From assembly GCA_044070495.1 (NCBI GenBank), contig JBIPSI010000015.1, forward strand, positions 83,215 to 147,214: a DNA stretch of 64,000 nucleotides, given 5' to 3'. The position numbers were made by a program. The stretch is from Spirulina sp. GTDB lineage: Bacteria; Cyanobacteriota; Cyanobacteriia; Phormidesmidales; Phormidesmidaceae. Positions 28,301-34,300 of the stretch are shown here, piece after piece. Positions within the stretch are counted from its first letter, which is position 1; each line of letters begins with the position of its first letter.

Positions 28301-31300
28301 GGGAAATAGGCAGCGGATTTCGCCTTACATCTAAAGTTTTGAGCTTAGGTAGAGTTTCAAGCCATTCAGGACACTCAGAGATGTGGTTGATTTTTAAGTC
28401 GAGATTCTCCAGCCTAGAAAGTTGTCTAAGGCAGTCCGGAATTGTCGTTATTTGATTACCATAAAGTCGAAGACCAGTCAGATTAGAGAGAGATGTGATG
28501 CAATTTGGAATGGCCGTAATTTGATTATTTTCAAGCCAAAGTTCAGTCAGATAGTTGAGTTCGCCTATACAATTTGGAATTATCTTGATTTGATTGCCAC
28601 CGAGCCAAAGCATCTTCAGACTTTTGAGTTCACCTATAAAATTCGGAATCATTTCAATTTGATTACCATATAGCCAAAGTGTCGTCAGACTTTTGAGTTC
28701 ACTAATACAATCTGGAATTGTCTTGATTGGATTACCACTCAGCCAAAGTGTCATCAGGCTTTTGAGTTCACTAATGCAATTCGGAGTTGTCGTGATTTGA
28801 TTGCCACTCAGCCCAAGCATCGTCAGACTTGTGAGTTCACCAATACAATTCGGAATCGTCGTGATTTGGTTAAGATCAAGTCTGAGCGCTGTCAGATTTG
28901 TGAGATCACTAATGCAATTCGGAATCATCTTGATTTGATTGCCATGGAGCAAAAGTGTCGTCAGACTTGTGAGTTCACCAATGCAATTCGGAATCGTCGT
29001 GATTTGGTTAAGATCAAGTCTGAGTACTGTCAGATTTGTGAGTTTACTGATGCAATCTGGAATTATTGCTATTTGATTTCTCTCGAGCCTGAGTAACATC
29101 AGTTTTTTTAGTTCGCTAATGCCATCCGGAATTGTCGCGATTTGATTGCTACTGAGGTTGAGCTTTTGGAGATGAGTAAGTTTGCCAATTTCGGGGGGCA
29201 GTTCCGTCAACCCTTGGCCAGAAAGGTCTAGCTCTGTCCAGCCCTCGGCGGCGGCTTGGTCAATCAGTTGCAGCAGCTCATCTTGGGTCATGGGTGGCAT
29301 CTCTTAGACAATCAGATGAATCCAGGCGTAGGCATTACCCACAGAATTAACAAGGCGACGATCTGCCGTCCATAACTCAGCAGTTAATGTTTCAGCCAAG
29401 GCCAAATAGTGAGCGTCATAGGTCGCTGGCAGTGAGAATTGGTTTGCGATTTACCAAGCTCGCTTGTGTAAACTGGCATCACCATAAAGCTCAATATTTA
29501 AGCCAAGAGCAATCTCTAAGAACCCATGGGCAATCTCTAGAGAAAACTGCCCTGCTTTTGCCAGTCTATACAGGGCATTTGTAACTTTATAGAGAATAAG
29601 ACTAGGCGCTGAAATGCTTGTTCCAGCTTCTATCCAGCCATTCCAAAGAACATGATAGGGAGATTCTTCTGGATCTGAAATCAACAGCCGTACCACAAAG
29701 CTGGCATCCACACACACGTTATCTAGGCTCATAGGATTGGAGGGTTCGACAAGATGCCGCTGAGAACAGTTTTATCGCGCTGCTCCCGTTCTTGGTGAAT
29801 CAACTCTGCGACGGGTAGGTCAGCCATGTCGGCTTCGTTAGATTGGCGCAGGCGTCGATGGAGGCTGCGTAGACGCTTTTGGCTGACTTTCCAGGCGGCT
29901 TTGCGATCCAGCTTGGTATACAGCAAGCTCCGTTCCGCCTCAGAAAGGGACTCGATGACCTGAAGAAGGGAGTCTACTAACTTTGTGTTCATGGCCAAAG
30001 GTGCAGTGACTAAACCTATTGTAAGCTCCCTAGATAGTTAAGCTCCGTCCAGCCCTCGGCGGCGGCTTGGTCAATCAGTTGCAGCAGCTCGTCTTGGGTC
30101 ATGGGCGTGGGGGTGGCGGGTGTTTTTCCATTTATAGCGGCGTTTAGGGGCTGTTGGCGAGGTCAGAAACCCGGTTTCTTGAGCAGGTGCACTACCTACC
30201 AGAGAACCTTGATGATTTCCGCGTCTCGCAGCATGGTGTCGCGGCTAATCAGGGTTGCTTCATAGAGTTTTGCGGTGGCCGCAATGATGCGGTCATGGAT
30301 ATCCCAGTGGCTAGGTAGCTCCAAAAGGCGTTGAAACGTGGGCAAATCGAATGGCACAATCGCGAAACCGTCGCCAGCTTCCAGACGAGCCATGACCTCT
30401 TCTATGCCAACCGGGACTCTCTGTCGCTGGGCAATGTATGTCAGTTCAGCCAGAACTAGCGTGGATACCAACACCTGAGCATCCCCTACCTCCGCAGCAC
30501 TCAGTACCTCGTGGGCCAAAGGTGAAAGCCGTGAGTCTTCAGCAATGAACCACGCTAGCGCATGGGTATCTGCAACAAAGGTATCCATGGACAAATGGGC
30601 TATTCCTCGTAGGCATGGCTAAAAACGGCTCGCTGTGCCGCTGCAAAGTCATCCTCTGAAAAATCCACCCCTCGCCACAGCCCTTGAAGCTGAGTGGAGC
30701 GCGGCCCCACCTGGGTTTGCTGGAGAACCGTCTGCCGTAGATGTTCCAACTCTTGCTGCAAAGCCTCGATGCGGATAAGGAGGTAATGACTCATATCACG
30801 TCTGGCCCACGAATATTCTGAAAAAGCTGGCTCTATTGTAAGCGCCCTAGACCGCTTTGCCGGAAAGGTCTAGCTCTGTCCAGCCCTCGGCGGCGGCTTG
30901 GTCAATTAGTTGCAGCAGATCAGCTCATCTTGGGGCATGGGCGTGGGGGTGGCGGGTGTTTTCCCAGTTATAGTGGCGTTTAGGGGCTGTTGGCGAGGCC
31001 AGAAACGGGGCTTCTTGGTAAAGCTAGGCTGTTTGGGCAATGGGTTGACCGAGATCATACAGAAACTCTGGTGCAAAGTCTGCCCCGTTGGGCCATTCAA
31101 TAGTGCTGGTCTCAGGATTTAGAAAGACCTGCTTAAAGTATTCGACATCCTTCAGGGGTGCAAAAATTTCGCCGTACAGTTCTTGGGCTAGATCAACATC
31201 CACGATGGCCTGGTTGTTAAACGTTAGTCTAAGTTTGTAGTTATCTAAATACTCAACCGTCTCAACATGAAGAAACATCGTTAACCTCATTTACTGCAAA

Positions 31301-34300
31301 GGCTCTACTTCATTCAGTGCTTTTCTCTGCCGTGCCAGTTCCCAATTTGCTAGAAGTTCTGTCTGGTGTAAGTCTAGCCATTCCAACACCATCCGCAAAG
31401 CCCGCTTAGACATTCTGCCTTCAACCACCCCAGTTTCTATTTCCACAATAATTTCCTGTTCCTGATAACGAGCATGAAAATGAGGTGGTTGATGATCGTT
31501 ATAGTTCATAAAAATAACGATGCCGTAGAATCGGCTAATGGTCGGCATAGCTAATGCCTCAAATGACTAAGTCCATTGTAGGCTCTCTAGATAGTCCTGC
31601 CAGAAAGGTCTAGCTCTGTCCAGCCCTCGGCGGCGGCTTGGTCAATTAGTTGCAGCAGCTCATCTTGGGTCATGGGTGTGGGCAAATGAAGAGGTGGAAA
31701 TTGGAAAAACTAAGACAAATTTTCAAGATCTGCTAAGTCTTGAAGTCGGCCTGAGGCACGCTTATTAAGCTTGAGATTTTCTAGGTCGATAAAGTTAACC
31801 ACAATGCCATCCATCTCCACCGTCAAACGATTGGTATAGCAGGTGGCAAAGTCAACACCATCTGGCGTTGTAATAAGATCAATAAGACTCGGAGGATAAC
31901 CTAATTGAATCACCTGATCTGGAGTCAAAAAGTCCTCTGCTTGAAGGTTCAGTGATGCGAATCCAAACTGCTTTAGAGCTTTTAGCATATTGGCAGCATT
32001 CTCAGGCGTCATCTCAACCCAAATATCAATATCTTTGGTGTAGCGAGGATAGCCATGCAAAGCCACAGCATAACCGCCGATTACCAAGTAATTAACCTGA
32101 TTATCGTTTAGTGACTGTATAAACTCTTTGAAATCTTGGTTCAGCACCGTATTTCCAGCAATGATACTGTTGGCGAAGATTTTCTAGCGCCCCAATTCTA
32201 TCGATATAGGGCTGTGTTCGCCAGTAAGTGGCCTCTTGCTTAGGCGCATGAAGGCTAGCCTTAGTTACGACGGCTTGTATAGTACGCCGTTCGGATTCTG
32301 TCACGGTCAATCCTCCATACAGTACCTAAGACCTATCTTAATCCACCGCCTCGGCGGCGGCTTGGTCAATCAGTTTCAGCGGCTCATCTTGGGTCATGGG
32401 CGTGGGGTGGCGGATGTTTTCCCAGTTATGGCGGTATTTAGAGGCTGTTGGCGAGGTCAGAAGCCCGGTTCCTTGGGTAAGCGGGTCTACCAGAGAACCT
32501 TGATGATTTCCGAGTCTCGCAGCATGGTGTCGCGGCACGGATCTAGCCCCACGTAGCCTGCGTCGAATCCGCCCCCTACCCCGTGAAACTTTAGTTCGCC
32601 CATGTACGTCCAGATAACTCTAATCTTGAAAGATAGGTCTTTGGCAGCCACCATGAAGCGATCACCCCTGTTCTCCCTAGCCCTAGCGAGTGTGGCGCTG
32701 ATGGGCGCTGTCCCCACAGCCTTTGCCGCCGAGGAGGTGGAGTTGCGGTATCGGGGGCTGAGCCGCACCGTAGCCGTAGCGGATTTGGCGACCCTAGCGG
32801 AAACCGGGGAAGCTCCGGCGAGGCTGGAGGGAATTTTGCAGATGGCCGGACAGTCGCCAGAAACCCTGCAAACGGTGCTCAACCACAGGCTCGAAACCGA
32901 TGCGGTGGTCTTAGACAAAGCCCTCAACAGCCTGCCGGGAGAATGGTTGCTCGATCAATTAGGGCAAACCCTGCGTCCGGTCAGTGGGGAGGCCAGTCGG
33001 CAGGCGTTGCGGTCGGCACTGGTGCTGTCGGCCAGCGACGATGGTGATGTGACCCTGCTGGAGGTGTTGCAAGCCTACCCCACCGAAACCGTCGTCCTTG
33101 AAGTCGATCAGCTTCAGTCGGCCTTTGAACGGATAACCACCTTCCTAGAGCCAATTTCGCGGGTGCTGGGCGAGAACATCCTAGAAATTATTCTCCGGGG
33201 CGGATTTTGAACCCCCAGGGGGCTGCGGTAGGATGATGACCTAGAAAAATGCAGAAAATACGGTTTTGTCCGGGTTTAGGGTCAGCGGTCGGGCGTCAGC
33301 ATGGGCCAACCCTAGGGCGGATGGTGTTCTTTTAAGTCGGTGCCCTATGGTTTCCCAACGTCAACGGCTGGTGCCCTGCCCCCTTGGCCCGCTTCAGGTG
33401 GCGGCATTGCCCCCAGCCAATGCCCTAGCCGATCCACCGATCACCCTATCCCTGGTGATTCCCACCTACAACGAGGGCCAAAACCTAGGGCCGCTGATCA
33501 ACGCCTTGGTGACGATCCTCGATCCGGTGCTGCCCAACGACTACGAATTGATCGTGGTCGATGATGATAGTCCCGACCTCACCTGGCGGCAGGGGTTGGC
33601 CCTAGGGGAGCATATTCCCCAACTGCGGGTGATGCGTCGCCAGGAGGAACGGGGTCTCTCTTCGGCGGTGATTCGCGGCTGGCAGGTAGCCCAGGGGCAG
33701 ATATTAGGGGTGATAGATGCCGACCTGCAACATCCCCCAGAAGTCCTGCTAGGCTTACTGGAAGCGATTCAGTCTGGGGCAGATTTAGCCGTGGCCAGCC
33801 GCCATGTGGAAGGGGGCGGCGTCAGTGAATGGAGCCTTGCCCGCCGCCTTCTGTCGCGGGGTGCCCAAACCCTAGGGCTGCTGATTTTACCGGGCGTCGT
33901 AGGCCAAGTCAGCGACCCCATGAGCGGCTTCTTTATGGTGCGGCGACAGGCCATCGCGGGGCCATTGCTCAACCCCAAGGGCTACAAAATTTTGCTAGAG
34001 GTGCTGGGCCGAGGCACCATCGACACCATCACCGAAGTCGGCTACGTCTTCCAGGAACGCCAGGAGGGCAGCAGCAAAGTCACCTGGCGGCAATACCTCG
34101 ACTACATCCACCACCTGCTACGGCTGCGGGCCGGAGGTCGCCTGTCCCACTGGCATCGACGCTTTCCCTGGCGGCGGTTTGTGCGCTTTGGCCTAGTGGG
34201 GCTGAGCGGCGTGGTGGTGGATATGGCCATCCTTTATTTGATGCACACCGCCCTAGGATTTCCCCTCACCCGAAGCAAAATTGTGGCGGCGGAAATCGCC

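Follow-up and report, generated by a model that had tools for sequence, protein, structure and literature searches.

Phage 21 and e14 integrate at icd and bring a replacement gene end with them. Insertion with long target duplication has a published definition, which fits the structure of the locus presented here (Furuta 2010, PMC2853133). In the window (the whole 64,000-nucleotide stretch of a Spirulina sp. contig that was analysed), cassettes flanked by long, variable direct repeats lie upstream of an LRR-Roc-COR (ROCO) gene, and the survey's finding had placed them under that label. The structural part of the claim held; the repeats, however, do not behave as plain duplications of a resident target, because at four of six other loci they end at a host start or stop codon, the differences between copies are mostly synonymous, and at C39 the two copies are unequally close to the nearest relative. 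We favor, with a probability of about 0.5, a reading in which cassettes arrive from related strains joined to a piece of a gene end, through homology-anchored recombination, and recombination between the copies then reshuffles them. The pattern suggests that bacteria can stack selfish or defensive genes at ordinary gene ends by homologous recombination without a dedicated integrase.

Repeat finding, alignment and genome-wide blastn identified, as had been reported, five direct copies (c1 to c5) of the ROCO 5' end; all are on the minus strand, and the rest of the 5.31-Mb genome has none. Pairwise identity among the five was 83-99% over 52-196 bp, far beyond chance. Four two-gene cassettes lie between them, all in the same orientation as ROCO (Table 1). 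In unit c2, segment P lies upstream of the repeated coding part (R). It has a TATAAA box as well as a half-palindrome, and it is homologous to the native ROCO upstream region of G027 and G020, in which the site is empty. The survey had counted the promoter five times and the peptide four times, and both counts were too high. The ~90-nt upstream segment is present in three of the five copies (c2, c3, c5), with only ~3-12 nt left upstream of the ATG in c4 and in ROCO's own c1, and the peptide MTQDELLQLIDQAAAEGW is intact in three (c1, c2, c4). A 5-nt insertion in R3 shifts the peptide frame (MPQDELICCN*), and c5 reads MTQDEPLKLIDQAAAE before diverging. Copy c4 has 98.75% identity to c1 over 80 nt. 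Across 196 nt, unit c5 is 86.7% identical to that of c2, and its identity to the matching unit of G015 is 90.9%. The PIN remnant in c5 (32487-32536) corresponds to the last 50 nt of the cassette 2 PIN gene and is 98% identical to 30196-30245; the repeated unit is thus more than host-gene sequence. Parts of J, the leader of cassette 1, reappear ahead of cassettes 2 and 3. The J motif is confined to the ROCO locus (3/3 genome matches), and in G018 and G002 it likewise stands ahead of cassette 1.

Table 1. Features of the ROCO array and its neighbors (positions within the window; R, ROCO 5'-end copy; P, upstream segment).
Feature	Position	Strand	Description	Basis
TA pair directly downstream of ROCO	26103..26575	-	ParE toxin 26103-26369 (ParE_toxin 4.5e-10); RelB-like antitoxin 26366-26575 (RelB_like_antitoxin 3e-17)	Pfam
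LRR-Roc-COR (ROCO) host gene	26619..29300	-	LRR_8 2e-46, Roc 6e-32, COR-A 9e-40, COR-B 2e-32; in-frame ATG 29300, conserved start ATG 29291	ORF list, Pfam, alignment
Copy c1 (R1)	~29213-29296		ROCO's own; ATG 29291	
Cassette 1 toxin	29307..29732	-	Broken PIN-type gene	Sequence, Pfam
Cassette 1 presumed antitoxin	29729..29998	-	89 aa	
J	30005..30045	-	Cassette 1 leader; ctatctagRgagcYtacaatRg..ttagtca	Alignment
Unit c2	30046..30195	-	R2 (ATG 30102, ROCO homology to +62) + P (~30103-30190)	
Cassette 2 toxin	30196..30594	-	PIN domain protein, 132 aa	Pfam PIN 9.9e-16
Cassette 2 presumed antitoxin	30600..30794	-	64 aa	
Unit c3	30850..31020	-	Partial J (J') + R3 (ATG 30938) + P	
Cassette 3 DUF2442 protein	31024..31290	-	DhiA-like antitoxin	Pfam 1.8e-13
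Cassette 3 DUF4160 protein	31291..31548	-	DhiT-like toxin	Pfam 1e-22
Unit c4	31565..31685	-	~35 nt of J + R4 (ATG 31673; homology to ~+76, upstream only ~10-12 nt), without P	
Cassette 4 DUF6036 protein	31710..32147	-	Nucleotidyltransferase-like, 145 aa	Pfam 2.1e-8
Cassette 4 69-aa ORF	32101..32310	-	Presumed partner; overlaps nucleotidyltransferase gene start	
Unit c5	32345..32536	-	R5 (ATG 32397, homology to ~+49) + P + PIN remnant	
DUF1400 protein	32602..33210	+	Divergent upstream neighbor	Pfam DUF1400 3.6e-35

Pfam and NCBIfam searches bore out the reported cassette content, and the low GC of the cassettes was re-derived as 0.44-0.54 vs 0.567 for the genome. The toxin gene of cassette 1 is interrupted by an in-frame TAA (29451-29453); its C-terminal part gave a weak PIN_2 match in Pfam (E 0.007, below cut-off), and the G018 orthologue is intact (142 aa, PIN 1.2e-5), with 76% identity between the two cassettes over 961 nt. 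The presumed antitoxin gene of cassette 1 lies upstream of the PIN gene, overlaps it and is kept in G018, G002 and G025, and that of cassette 2 occurs in two copies in G015. Neither of these presumed antitoxins nor the 69-aa ORF of cassette 4 had a family match in Pfam or NCBIfam. The cassette 3 proteins matched the NCBIfam antitoxin DhiA (4.6e-5) and toxin DhiT (7.6e-19), both below the curated cut-off. The DUF1400 gene forms the outer border of the array. Blastn-short of both flanks found no DNA repeat around the RelB/ParE pair downstream of ROCO. There was no recombinase or IS at the ROCO site in the genome of the array (G000) and no Phage_integrase match within ~100 kb of it; the whole genome has five such matches, three over the cut-off.

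Relatives carry empty and alternative versions of the site. G051 and G027 have P-R-ROCO only, in agreement with the promoter and gene alone that had been noted for G027, and in each of these two genomes the repeats match one copy, as those of the C39 ABC gene do in G015. One cassette is present in G018 and G002, and a different array in G015. Counted from the ROCO ATG, the junctions of cassette 1 are at -3 and ~+85 in G018 and G002, the G000 copy ending at +62 after a secondary deletion. Those of cassette 4 are at -10/-12 and +49, those of cassette 3 at -95 and J+35, and those of cassette 2 at -100 and J+20. A nucleotidyltransferase cassette in G015 has its junctions at -7 and +35, its ORF being an in-frame fusion with the first 11-12 codons of ROCO, and a metagenome contig in X4/X5 runs from R at +16 through 711 letters of other sequence to R at -12. 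The independent junction pairs fall within one ~220-bp zone, and their unlikeness between cassettes indicates several independent events. A 2.4-kb insert in G015 (GC 0.44) is flanked by ~390-bp repeats of cassette and unit DNA, with G000 as its empty site. Circles, excision junctions in reads and transfer were not observed. Population data came from metagenome contigs only, with short sides of 30-61 nt at the joints, and include variants in which cassette 2 is absent or replaced; in an X1 contig, 30110 is joined to 30951, so that cassette 2 and one unit are missing. Alignment of ROCO with that of G015, the closest relative, is confined to 27671-28256 and R1, with flanks ~90% identical.

Base-by-base reading of six other loci placed the repeat end exactly at a host start or stop codon in four: the stop codon of uvrA (C44), the ABC gene (C39) and dnaE-N (C27), and the start codon of a GT2 gene (C45). 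An exception is C1, where the repeat spans -79 to +24. Codon differences between copies, pooled over six loci, were 45 synonymous to 20 non-synonymous (P = 5e-8, against ~36% synonymous expected if one copy drifted neutrally in situ) and 21:16 (P = 0.008) with the two strongest loci removed, from a small set of pairs, some of them related by descent (cassette 1 is common to G000, G018 and G002). C39 alone gave 12:1 (P = 1.6e-5), and G018 R_R vs R_L gave 12:3 (P = 4e-4); C45 ran against the rule (6:9). Stop codons were retained between copies as TAA/TAG and TGA/TAA. Ancestral-looking states at dnaE-N sit in the non-functional copy. The gene-attached copy at C39 is mosaic, being 100% identical to G015 over its first 88 nt and unlike it in 7 of its final 17 nt, whereas the second copy has ~83% identity to G015; no matching donor allele was found among 52 congeners, to any of which this second copy is only 82-85% identical. 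Because the differences are mostly synonymous and the stop codons are retained, the copies look like diverged gene-end alleles, apparently joined by recombination between related genomes. The array itself has too few codon differences vs R1 to test such divergence (synonymous to non-synonymous 2:0 in c2, 1:0 in c4, 0:2 in c5; c3 frameshifted).

Re-derivation of the genome-wide claim again gave ~16 places. Repeats of at least 80% identity occurred in 61 places, 36 of them with at most seven copies genome-wide. In 21 of the 36 the repeats flank a gene of the TA, nuclease, RM or NACHT kind, and 16 remain once five with repeats between neighboring cassettes are set aside. Of the others, three hold nothing but small ORFs of unknown kind, and 12 belong to different categories. 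The 3' end of uvrA, also named by the survey, has the signature, and congeners carry arrays at this second site too (two copies in G000, three in G015, four in G020, one in G027), with AAA_21+DUF4276, PIN, RHH and HEPN genes as cargo. Its inner boundaries lie 44, 84, ~111 and 175 nt before the stop, and the type of uvrA tail travels together with the sequence after it.

In the homology-anchored reading, the locus would be an integrase-free cassette array with a conserved host gene end as attachment point. DNA from a related strain would bring a small addictive or defensive cassette with an adjoining fragment of the conserved gene end. The fragment might be circularised and enter by a single crossover with the resident gene end (Campbell type), or be linear, homologous at one end and joined illegitimately at the other (homology-facilitated illegitimate recombination). 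By both routes the host gene would stay intact and an extra gene-end copy would land beyond the cassette, so the repeat would run from a variable point in the ORF to the end of the donor-recipient homology, which would usually stop at a start or stop codon. Repeated entries would build (gene end-cassette)n, in which RecA recombination between copies could delete, duplicate or exchange cassettes, with loss opposed by TA post-segregational killing or by selection for defence. A minimal order of cassettes 1, 3, 2 and 4 would give the observed junctions, with one more rearrangement required to account for the PIN remnant next to c5. The six P copies found in G000 and G015 all have lineage-specific features in common, which suggests that donors would be close relatives. 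Transformation may have a role, and ComEC and DprA are present in the genome; this is weak evidence, since E. coli also has both. ROCO lies ~3.2 kb from the outermost upstream segment, the nearest P (c2) being ~0.8 kb upstream, and its transcription would probably have to come via read-through or cassette promoters.

True in-situ insertion, in which a foreign cassette is captured while a resident stretch of 35-400 bp is duplicated (staggered breaks being filled in, or templates switched at stall sites, followed by drift and gene conversion), is unlikely but carries some weight. Besides agreeing with the published definition, it would yield the array by the same serial order of cassettes. A left boundary 3-12 nt upstream of the ATG is common to three or four events and the collapsed palindrome to two, and such clustering may just as well point to hot spots of breakage or stalling in a duplicative mechanism. 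Immediately upstream of the ATG, the opposite strand has a G-rich tract. The copies of the G015 390-bp repeat are ~96% alike (by eye) vs 91-92% to G000, and the R copies of G000 are 94-99% alike vs 93.6% to G015 R1, which fits local duplication or gene conversion equally. It does not, however, predict the repeat ends at start and stop codons, the synonymous excess with retained stop codons, or the much greater distance of the second C39 copy than of the first from the nearest relative, and we know of no enzyme that cuts with a 35-400 bp stagger.

Somewhat less probable still is a single founding insertion, the rest being unequal crossing-over and double-crossover allelic exchange with the arrays of relatives, so that the repeats would be propagated spacers and not a record of separate insertions. 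The first arrival of non-homologous cassettes is impossible by homologous exchange alone, and the junctions of cassette 4, the G015 nucleotidyltransferase cassette and the 711-nt cassette (+49, +35, +16) are their own and not derivable from that of cassette 1. Reshuffling of this kind is nevertheless consistent with the R|J junction common to c2, c3, c4, G018 and G002, the cassette 2 piece in c5, the doubled antitoxin in G015, the variant base common to c3 and c4, and the X1 contig, which lacks exactly one unit with cassette 2.

Site-specific accretion of integrase-less (CIME-like) remnants, each carrying a replacement gene end and mobilized by a recombinase in trans, would resemble phage 21 and e14 at icd in its integration into gene ends. 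Element-borne ends would explain the ORF-end bounds and the allele-like divergence, and a core site could underlie the clustered boundary at -3 to -12, but we hold this to be very improbable: the genome has only three clear tyrosine recombinases, none within ~100 kb of the array, the inner boundaries vary at both ROCO (+16, +35, +49, +62/+85) and uvrA, conserved inverted repeats or a core were not seen at the junctions, and the cassettes measure only 0.55-0.8 kb. Although the genome is a draft in 74 contigs, and short-read assemblers can be misled by repeats of 50-190 bp, artefact or chance similarity has next to no credibility, in line with the survey's rejection of an artefact, since the copies are distinguished by SNPs and indels, the contig around the array is 147 kb long, independent assemblies, among them the near-complete G002 (two contigs) and G027, contain homologous arrays, and cassette pieces are covered by metagenome contigs, those of 650-709 nt matching cassette 1.

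Copies of host-gene ends separating small toxin-antitoxin (TA) and defence cassettes are a real, reproducible and strain-variable feature that recurs in the Spirulina genome under study (G000) and in its congeners. In the window, four small cassettes (cas1 to cas4) precede the LRR-Roc-COR host gene (ROCO) on the minus strand, with five direct copies of the ROCO 5′ end (R1 to R5, within units c1 to c5) between them. Each of the four cassettes is flanked by such copies, which display 83–99% identity over 52–196 bp, and no copy was found beyond this array in the whole 5.31-Mb genome. 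The survey had placed the promoter in all five copies and the peptide start in four; the upstream segment (P) was present in only three of the five, and the peptide MTQDELLQLIDQAAAEGW is intact in three. The cassettes are 0.55–0.8 kb long with a GC content of 0.44–0.54, compared to 0.567 for the genome. Their combination of a toxin-family domain with a small, adjacent or overlapping, co-oriented partner fits putative type II TA systems (VapBC-like, DhiTA-like).

Layout of the array in front of ROCO, in the ROCO reading direction (window positions), and loci of the array at the uvrA 3′ end. J, leader of cas1; J′, partial J.
Feature	Position	Strand	Remarks
DUF1400 gene			outermost; divergent
Remnant of PIN 3′ end	32536-32487		50 nt, next to the DUF1400 gene
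P, then R5	ATG 32397		homologous to ~+49
cas4			69-aa ORF and DUF6036 nucleotidyltransferase, after R5
R4	ATG 31673		just ~10-12 nt kept upstream; homology to ~+76
J			leader, between R4 and cas3
cas3			DUF4160 and DUF2442; DhiT/DhiA-like by NCBIfam, both below equivalog cut-offs
P, then R3	ATG 30938		R3 with a 5-nt insertion
J′			between R3 and cas2
cas2			64-aa ORF upstream of PIN (Pfam, 9.9e-16)
P, then R2	ATG 30102		homologous to +62
J			between R2 and cas1
cas1			89-aa ORF and PIN gene; in-frame TAA in PIN at 29451-29453
~12 nt, then R1	ATG 29291		R1 is the ROCO start
ROCO	26619-29300	-	host gene; Pfam LRR_8, Roc, COR-A, COR-B
uvrA 3′-end array	C44:4033-5204 (G000)		also L102 (G015), L103 (G020), L104 (G040), L105 (G050)

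A search for the c2 unit across the 53 genomes of the genus gave a match at E ≤ 1e-5 in 19 genomes, including G000. A cassette-free P-R-ROCO arrangement with a single R was found in both G051 and G027. The upstream genes of G018 are those of G051, but G018 reads R-J-cas1-R-ROCO with the PIN gene intact. The identity of cas1 between G018 and G000 was 76%, equal to the figure for ROCO itself, indicating that cas1 is old. G002 carries an IS110 transposase followed by R, a deleted cas1 and R, and in G025 a fragment of antitoxin 1 and then cas3 stand immediately ahead of ROCO. G015, the closest relative with flanks ~90% identical to those of G000, has cas3-P-R-J′-antitoxin 2 plus a PIN remnant in common with G000, and antitoxin 2 is duplicated in G015. 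A 2.4-kb insert (GC 0.44) in G015 lies between ~390-bp repeats of array DNA, and G000 represents its empty site. Adjoining ROCO in G015, a nucleotidyltransferase (111 aa; NTP_transf_2, 6.8e-12; locus L031, G015:C179, 8686–9018, minus strand) is fused in frame to the first 11–12 ROCO codons. Since this protein begins with ROCO codons (MTQDELLQLIDQ), it would use the promoter and start of the host gene, and it is a fusion created at a cassette junction. When ROCO was compared to L031 by blastn, only 27671–28256 (the Roc part, 88%) and R1 aligned, and the COR and LRR parts (26054–27671 and 28256–29170) gave no blastn alignment to G015 between those similar flanks; other congeners align across Roc-COR at 76–85%. 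The host gene itself is a recombinant mosaic.

Metagenome contigs (X1, X2 and X4/X5) were placed at a likeness of at least 90%, and stretches lacking contig cover are uninformative. An X1 contig joins 30110 to 30951, meaning that cas2 and one unit are missing there. A 1006-nt X4/X5 contig consists of the DUF2442 end, P, R to +16 relative to the ROCO ATG, 711 other letters and R from −12 to +49, and further X4/X5 contig pieces correspond to cas3, cas4 and the DUF1400 flank with 0–2 differences. Two X2 joints (31679 to 30947 and 31687 to 32363) have short sides with undetermined letters between and were not used in the interpretation. Recent movement of cas3 between loci was also considered and set aside; its relatives of ~73% identity (in G016, G028, G003, G034 and G015:C225) sit at another syntenic locus without flanking repeats and are not informative.

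The junction pairs were not alike from cassette to cassette, which argues for several separate events and against one site-specific core. Inner boundaries at ROCO vary from +16 to +85, and the outer boundaries form one cluster at −3 to −12 (cas1, cas4, the G015 cassette and the X4/X5 cassette) and a second at about −95 to −100, at a collapsed palindrome (cas2 and cas3). The R|J junction is common to c2, c3 and c4, and J is also present in G018 and G002; the common junction would follow from J being the cas1 leader and forming part of the stretch that the later cas3 and cas2 events repeated. The J motif CTAGRGMGCYTACAAT has three genome hits, all at the ROCO locus; taken as a cas1 leader that later events duplicated, it was rejected as a general att site. 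An order of events running cas1, cas3, cas2, cas4 would reproduce the array, with one additional rearrangement required for the PIN remnant beside c5. Lineage-specific features are carried by all six P copies of G000 and G015 and are absent from the native upstream region of G027, G051, G018, G002 and G025.

The P segment holds half of the palindrome AGAAACCGGGTTTCT (30170–30185, 31000–31015 and 32455–32470), a dispersed element with 28 exact copies in the genome that often occurs in inverted pairs 41 nt apart (e.g., C2:80877/80918 and C26:30611/30652). In the ROCO upstream region the full hairpin is present in G027 and G025 and is collapsed in G000 and G015, where two repeat boundaries fall at it. 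As a dispersed repeat that is not border-specific, the palindrome was rejected as a cassette-border signal.

A plus/plus self-blastn of G000 returned 246 HSP pairs 50–500 bp long and 200–8000 bp apart. At an identity of at least 80% there were 125 HSPs at 61 places, 36 of them with no more than seven copies genome-wide. Pfam annotation indicated that 21 of these 36 places enclose a TA, nuclease, RM (restriction-modification) or NACHT gene, three enclose small unknown ORFs alone and 12 are other structures (two DGRs, one cas locus, the kdp operon, paralogue pairs, phage-like leaders and repeats inside large genes). At five of the 21 the repeats lie between neighbouring cassettes or paralogues, leaving 16, and the genome-wide counts of the survey (21 places, less five) were thus borne out. 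An Eco29kI-type RM gene is enclosed at just one other place in G000. A second array site of the genus lies at the uvrA 3′ end, which is present in two copies in G000, three in G015, four in G020 and one in G027. Its cargo, all co-oriented with uvrA, includes AAA_21 plus DUF4276, PIN, RHH and HEPN genes; several distinct antitoxin genes have a common leader GGGCGCTACCATGGAGGC after the uvrA copies, and the inner boundaries vary from 44 to 175 nt before the stop. At the dnaE-N 3′ end (C27:41258–43725, L066), whose host gene we take from its end motif MLPIDEIFERGLELKQV to be the split-intein DnaE N-fragment, second copies were also found in G050 and G020, and an XisH/XisI pair lies directly 3′ of the host-gene stop codon in G000, G050 and G015.

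The repeats were read base by base at six loci other than the ROCO array. In four of the six the repeat ends at a host ORF boundary, which is the stop codon of uvrA (C44), an ABC-type gene (C39) and dnaE-N (C27) and the start codon of a GT2 gene (C45); the repeat at C9 ends five codons short of the stop and that at C1 spans −79 to +24. Differences between paired copies were mostly synonymous, with synonymous to non-synonymous ratios of 12:1 (C39), 6:3 (C44), 6:3 (C27), 6:9 (C45), 3:1 (C9) and 12:3 (R_R compared to R_L in G018). Pooled over the five G000 loci and the G018 R pair the ratio was 45:20 (P = 5e-8), and 21:16 (P = 0.008) when C39 and G018 were left out, against a null of ~36% synonymous if one copy had drifted neutrally after local duplication. 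At C39 and C27 a stop codon is kept in both copies, but it is a different one. The two C39 copies are 87.5% alike, and their identities to G015 are 94.7–100% and ~83%. The gene-attached copy equals G015 over its first 88 nt, with 7 of the last 17 nt differing, and beyond the second lies the native downstream flank in diverged form; no donor for the second copy was found among the 52 congeners (best match 84.5%). In each of the uvrA copies the terminal codons vary together with the sequence that comes next. The ROCO R copies are 94–99% alike within G000 compared to 93.6% to G015, and have too few differences for the synonymous test.

These ends at ORF boundaries, the synonymous excess with its retained but differing stop codons, and the mosaicism at C39 (where only the gene-attached copy matches G015), uvrA and ROCO argue against in-situ duplication of resident sequence, a serious rival that draws its support from the ROCO array, where the R copies are more alike than expected of foreign alleles and the clustered outer boundaries could mark break hot spots. 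The survey had described the cassettes as inserted with long target duplication; this holds as a description of the structure, while the evidence favours recombination between diverged alleles over target duplication.

The mechanism that best fits the sequences, with a probability that we put at about 0.5, would be homology-anchored acquisition. DNA of a related strain would bring a cassette joined to part of the conserved neighbouring gene end and would recombine inside that gene end, either as a circle through one crossover (Campbell) or as linear DNA whose far end is joined illegitimately (HFIR). Both routes predict a repeat running from a variable in-gene point to the limit of inter-strain homology, allele-like copies, native flank outside the outer copy, and arrays upon repeated events. 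Repeats ending at an ORF boundary were found at four of the six other loci, and the synonymous excess with retained stops makes the copies look like diverged alleles; the presence of ComEC and DprA in G000 gives weak support. Recombination between copies would account for the deletion of unit size seen in X1, the second copy of antitoxin 2 in G015 and the PIN remnant at c5. A bolder extension, which we regard as tentative and rather unlikely, is that small TA and defence cassettes, circulating as a pool among related cyanobacterial strains in the form of a gene-end fragment plus cassette, would use conserved gene ends as homology-based attachment sites, with integration, circle excision and stacking by RecA alone (an ‘integron without integrase’) and with host genes such as ROCO placed under inserted TA promoters.

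Accretion of a site-specific element or CIME is unlikely, as the inner and outer boundaries at ROCO and the inner boundaries at uvrA vary and no recombinase lies nearby. A PF00589 search of the genome found no tyrosine recombinase near the array, the nearest (weak) hit being ~100 kb away on the contig, and no transposase was found among the array ORFs (Pfam). The array resembles integrons in its co-oriented, promoter-proximal stacks of small cassettes including TA pairs, in the repeated elements between cassettes and in cassette gain, loss and reordering. Unlike in integrons, however, the spacer is a host-gene-end copy with variable boundaries; the spacers here are homologous to the ROCO 5′ end and its upstream region and are not attC-like palindromes. 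With no intI, no attI/attC and no tyrosine recombinase nearby, an integron was ruled out.

Nobusato and colleagues reportedly described, in 2000, the insertion of RM genes with a long target duplication. Furuta, Abe and Kobayashi (2010; PMC2853133) treated RM genes inserted in this way, for the most part in bacteria with natural competence but also in the cyanobacterium Microcystis, and the section of a 2014 review (PMC3874152) on this mode ascribes it to RM systems only. The inserts, as portrayed in the relevant passages of the 2010 paper, are like the present cassettes in being small and addictive and in often overlapping gene ends. They also have no mobility gene, and their variable direct repeats exceed 30 bp and align to one copy in an insert-free genome. 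The corresponding features here are repeats of 52–196 bp around each of the four cassettes, a single copy in the insert-free G051 and G027, and inserts below 20 kb with no mobility gene, with G002 having an IS110 upstream of its array. In place of the RM cargo that those authors require, PIN, DUF4160/DUF2442 and DUF6036 genes are present. Unlike the RM inserts in those passages, the cargo in this genome comprises TA pairs, small nucleases and a NACHT gene, and multi-cassette arrays occur at one site. The fusion of the G015 nucleotidyltransferase to ROCO codons has a counterpart in one published RM case of gene fusion at a junction. In two rows of Table 3 of PMC2853133 the paired copies are near-identical and less like the empty site, whereas the copies here differ mainly synonymously and, at C39, one of them resembles the empty site far more than it does its partner.

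At T6SS effector-immunity loci, as at Rhs and CDI loci, orphan modules form arrays by sequential displacement (Kirchberger et al., 2017; PMC5361080). As described in that paper, these arrays have in common with ours growth beside a conserved gene with recombination anchored in the conserved part and an illegitimate join opposite, displaced conserved gene-end fragments that remain between modules, and turnover at strain level. In the arrays so described, the incoming module takes the place of a functional domain in the host gene and immunity genes make up the orphans, whereas the cassettes here are functionally unrelated to their host genes (ROCO, uvrA, dnaE-N, ABC exporter), which are left whole, and both 5′ and 3′ gene ends are used.

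Campbell-type integration and merodiploidy are familiar as a laboratory tool and from large IS-bounded duplications. We know of no description in which Campbell-type integration naturally builds up stacks of TA or defence cassettes at gene ends, and a search of the open-access literature found no description of TA/defence cassettes or arrays with host-gene-end repeats. In the part of Johnston et al. (2013; PMC3784515) on transformation-induced merodiploidy, duplication arises by recombination of incoming DNA, and the likeness lies in incoming homology giving a direct duplication around the insert that can be reverted by recombination.

The movement of chromosomal TA and small defence genes without mobility genes is an old question. 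G000 gives ~16 marked sites, two of which form arrays, and its close relatives and the metagenome variants show sites that are empty, hold one cassette or have cassettes swapped. With their allele-like divergence, the repeats point to a route that is concrete and can be tested, homology-anchored recombination with the DNA of relatives, and suggest that the ‘long target duplication’ of RM genes may partly have the same origin. In genome annotation, short ‘hypothetical’ ORFs beside TA pairs that repeat the start or end of a gene would be recombination scars, and a host gene located behind such an array may no longer have a promoter of its own.

Several further repeats were observed. At C18:36558–39782 (L062), a 736-aa HTH-NACHT-NCH2 STAND NTPase is bracketed by 90-bp repeats of 93% identity next to the 3′ end of an adjacent gene, indicating that larger defence genes show the signature too. 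In the cas4-cas1-cas2 cluster (C1:146082–147787, L047), 155-bp direct repeats ahead of cas1 and of cas2 enclose cas1 and a 23S_rRNA_IVP-family gene, the latter inserted between cas1 and cas2. A TPR-gene 3′ end occurs three times (73–92 bp, 95–98% identical) at C9:8635–10251 (L056), and the two intervals of small ORFs between, which gave no Pfam hit, may represent TA-like cassettes that have escaped recognition. The ROCO C-terminal tail (NTHQHGKGDNVAGDLVQGDKHG, 26619–26700) resembles the N-terminus of a 194-aa ORF past a downstream RelB/ParE pair (NTIYQHGSGDNIAGDKVMGDKVAG, 25990–26060); no DNA-level repeat was found around the pair, and the likeness may be an old, decayed gene-end repeat around a RelB/ParE cassette. 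Finally, a tandem repeat with an 8/24-nt period (CCATCACCGTCCCACCTTCCCACC) is located at 35278–35421, just upstream of an ABC ATPase gene, and reads as PSHLPT repeats in one frame.
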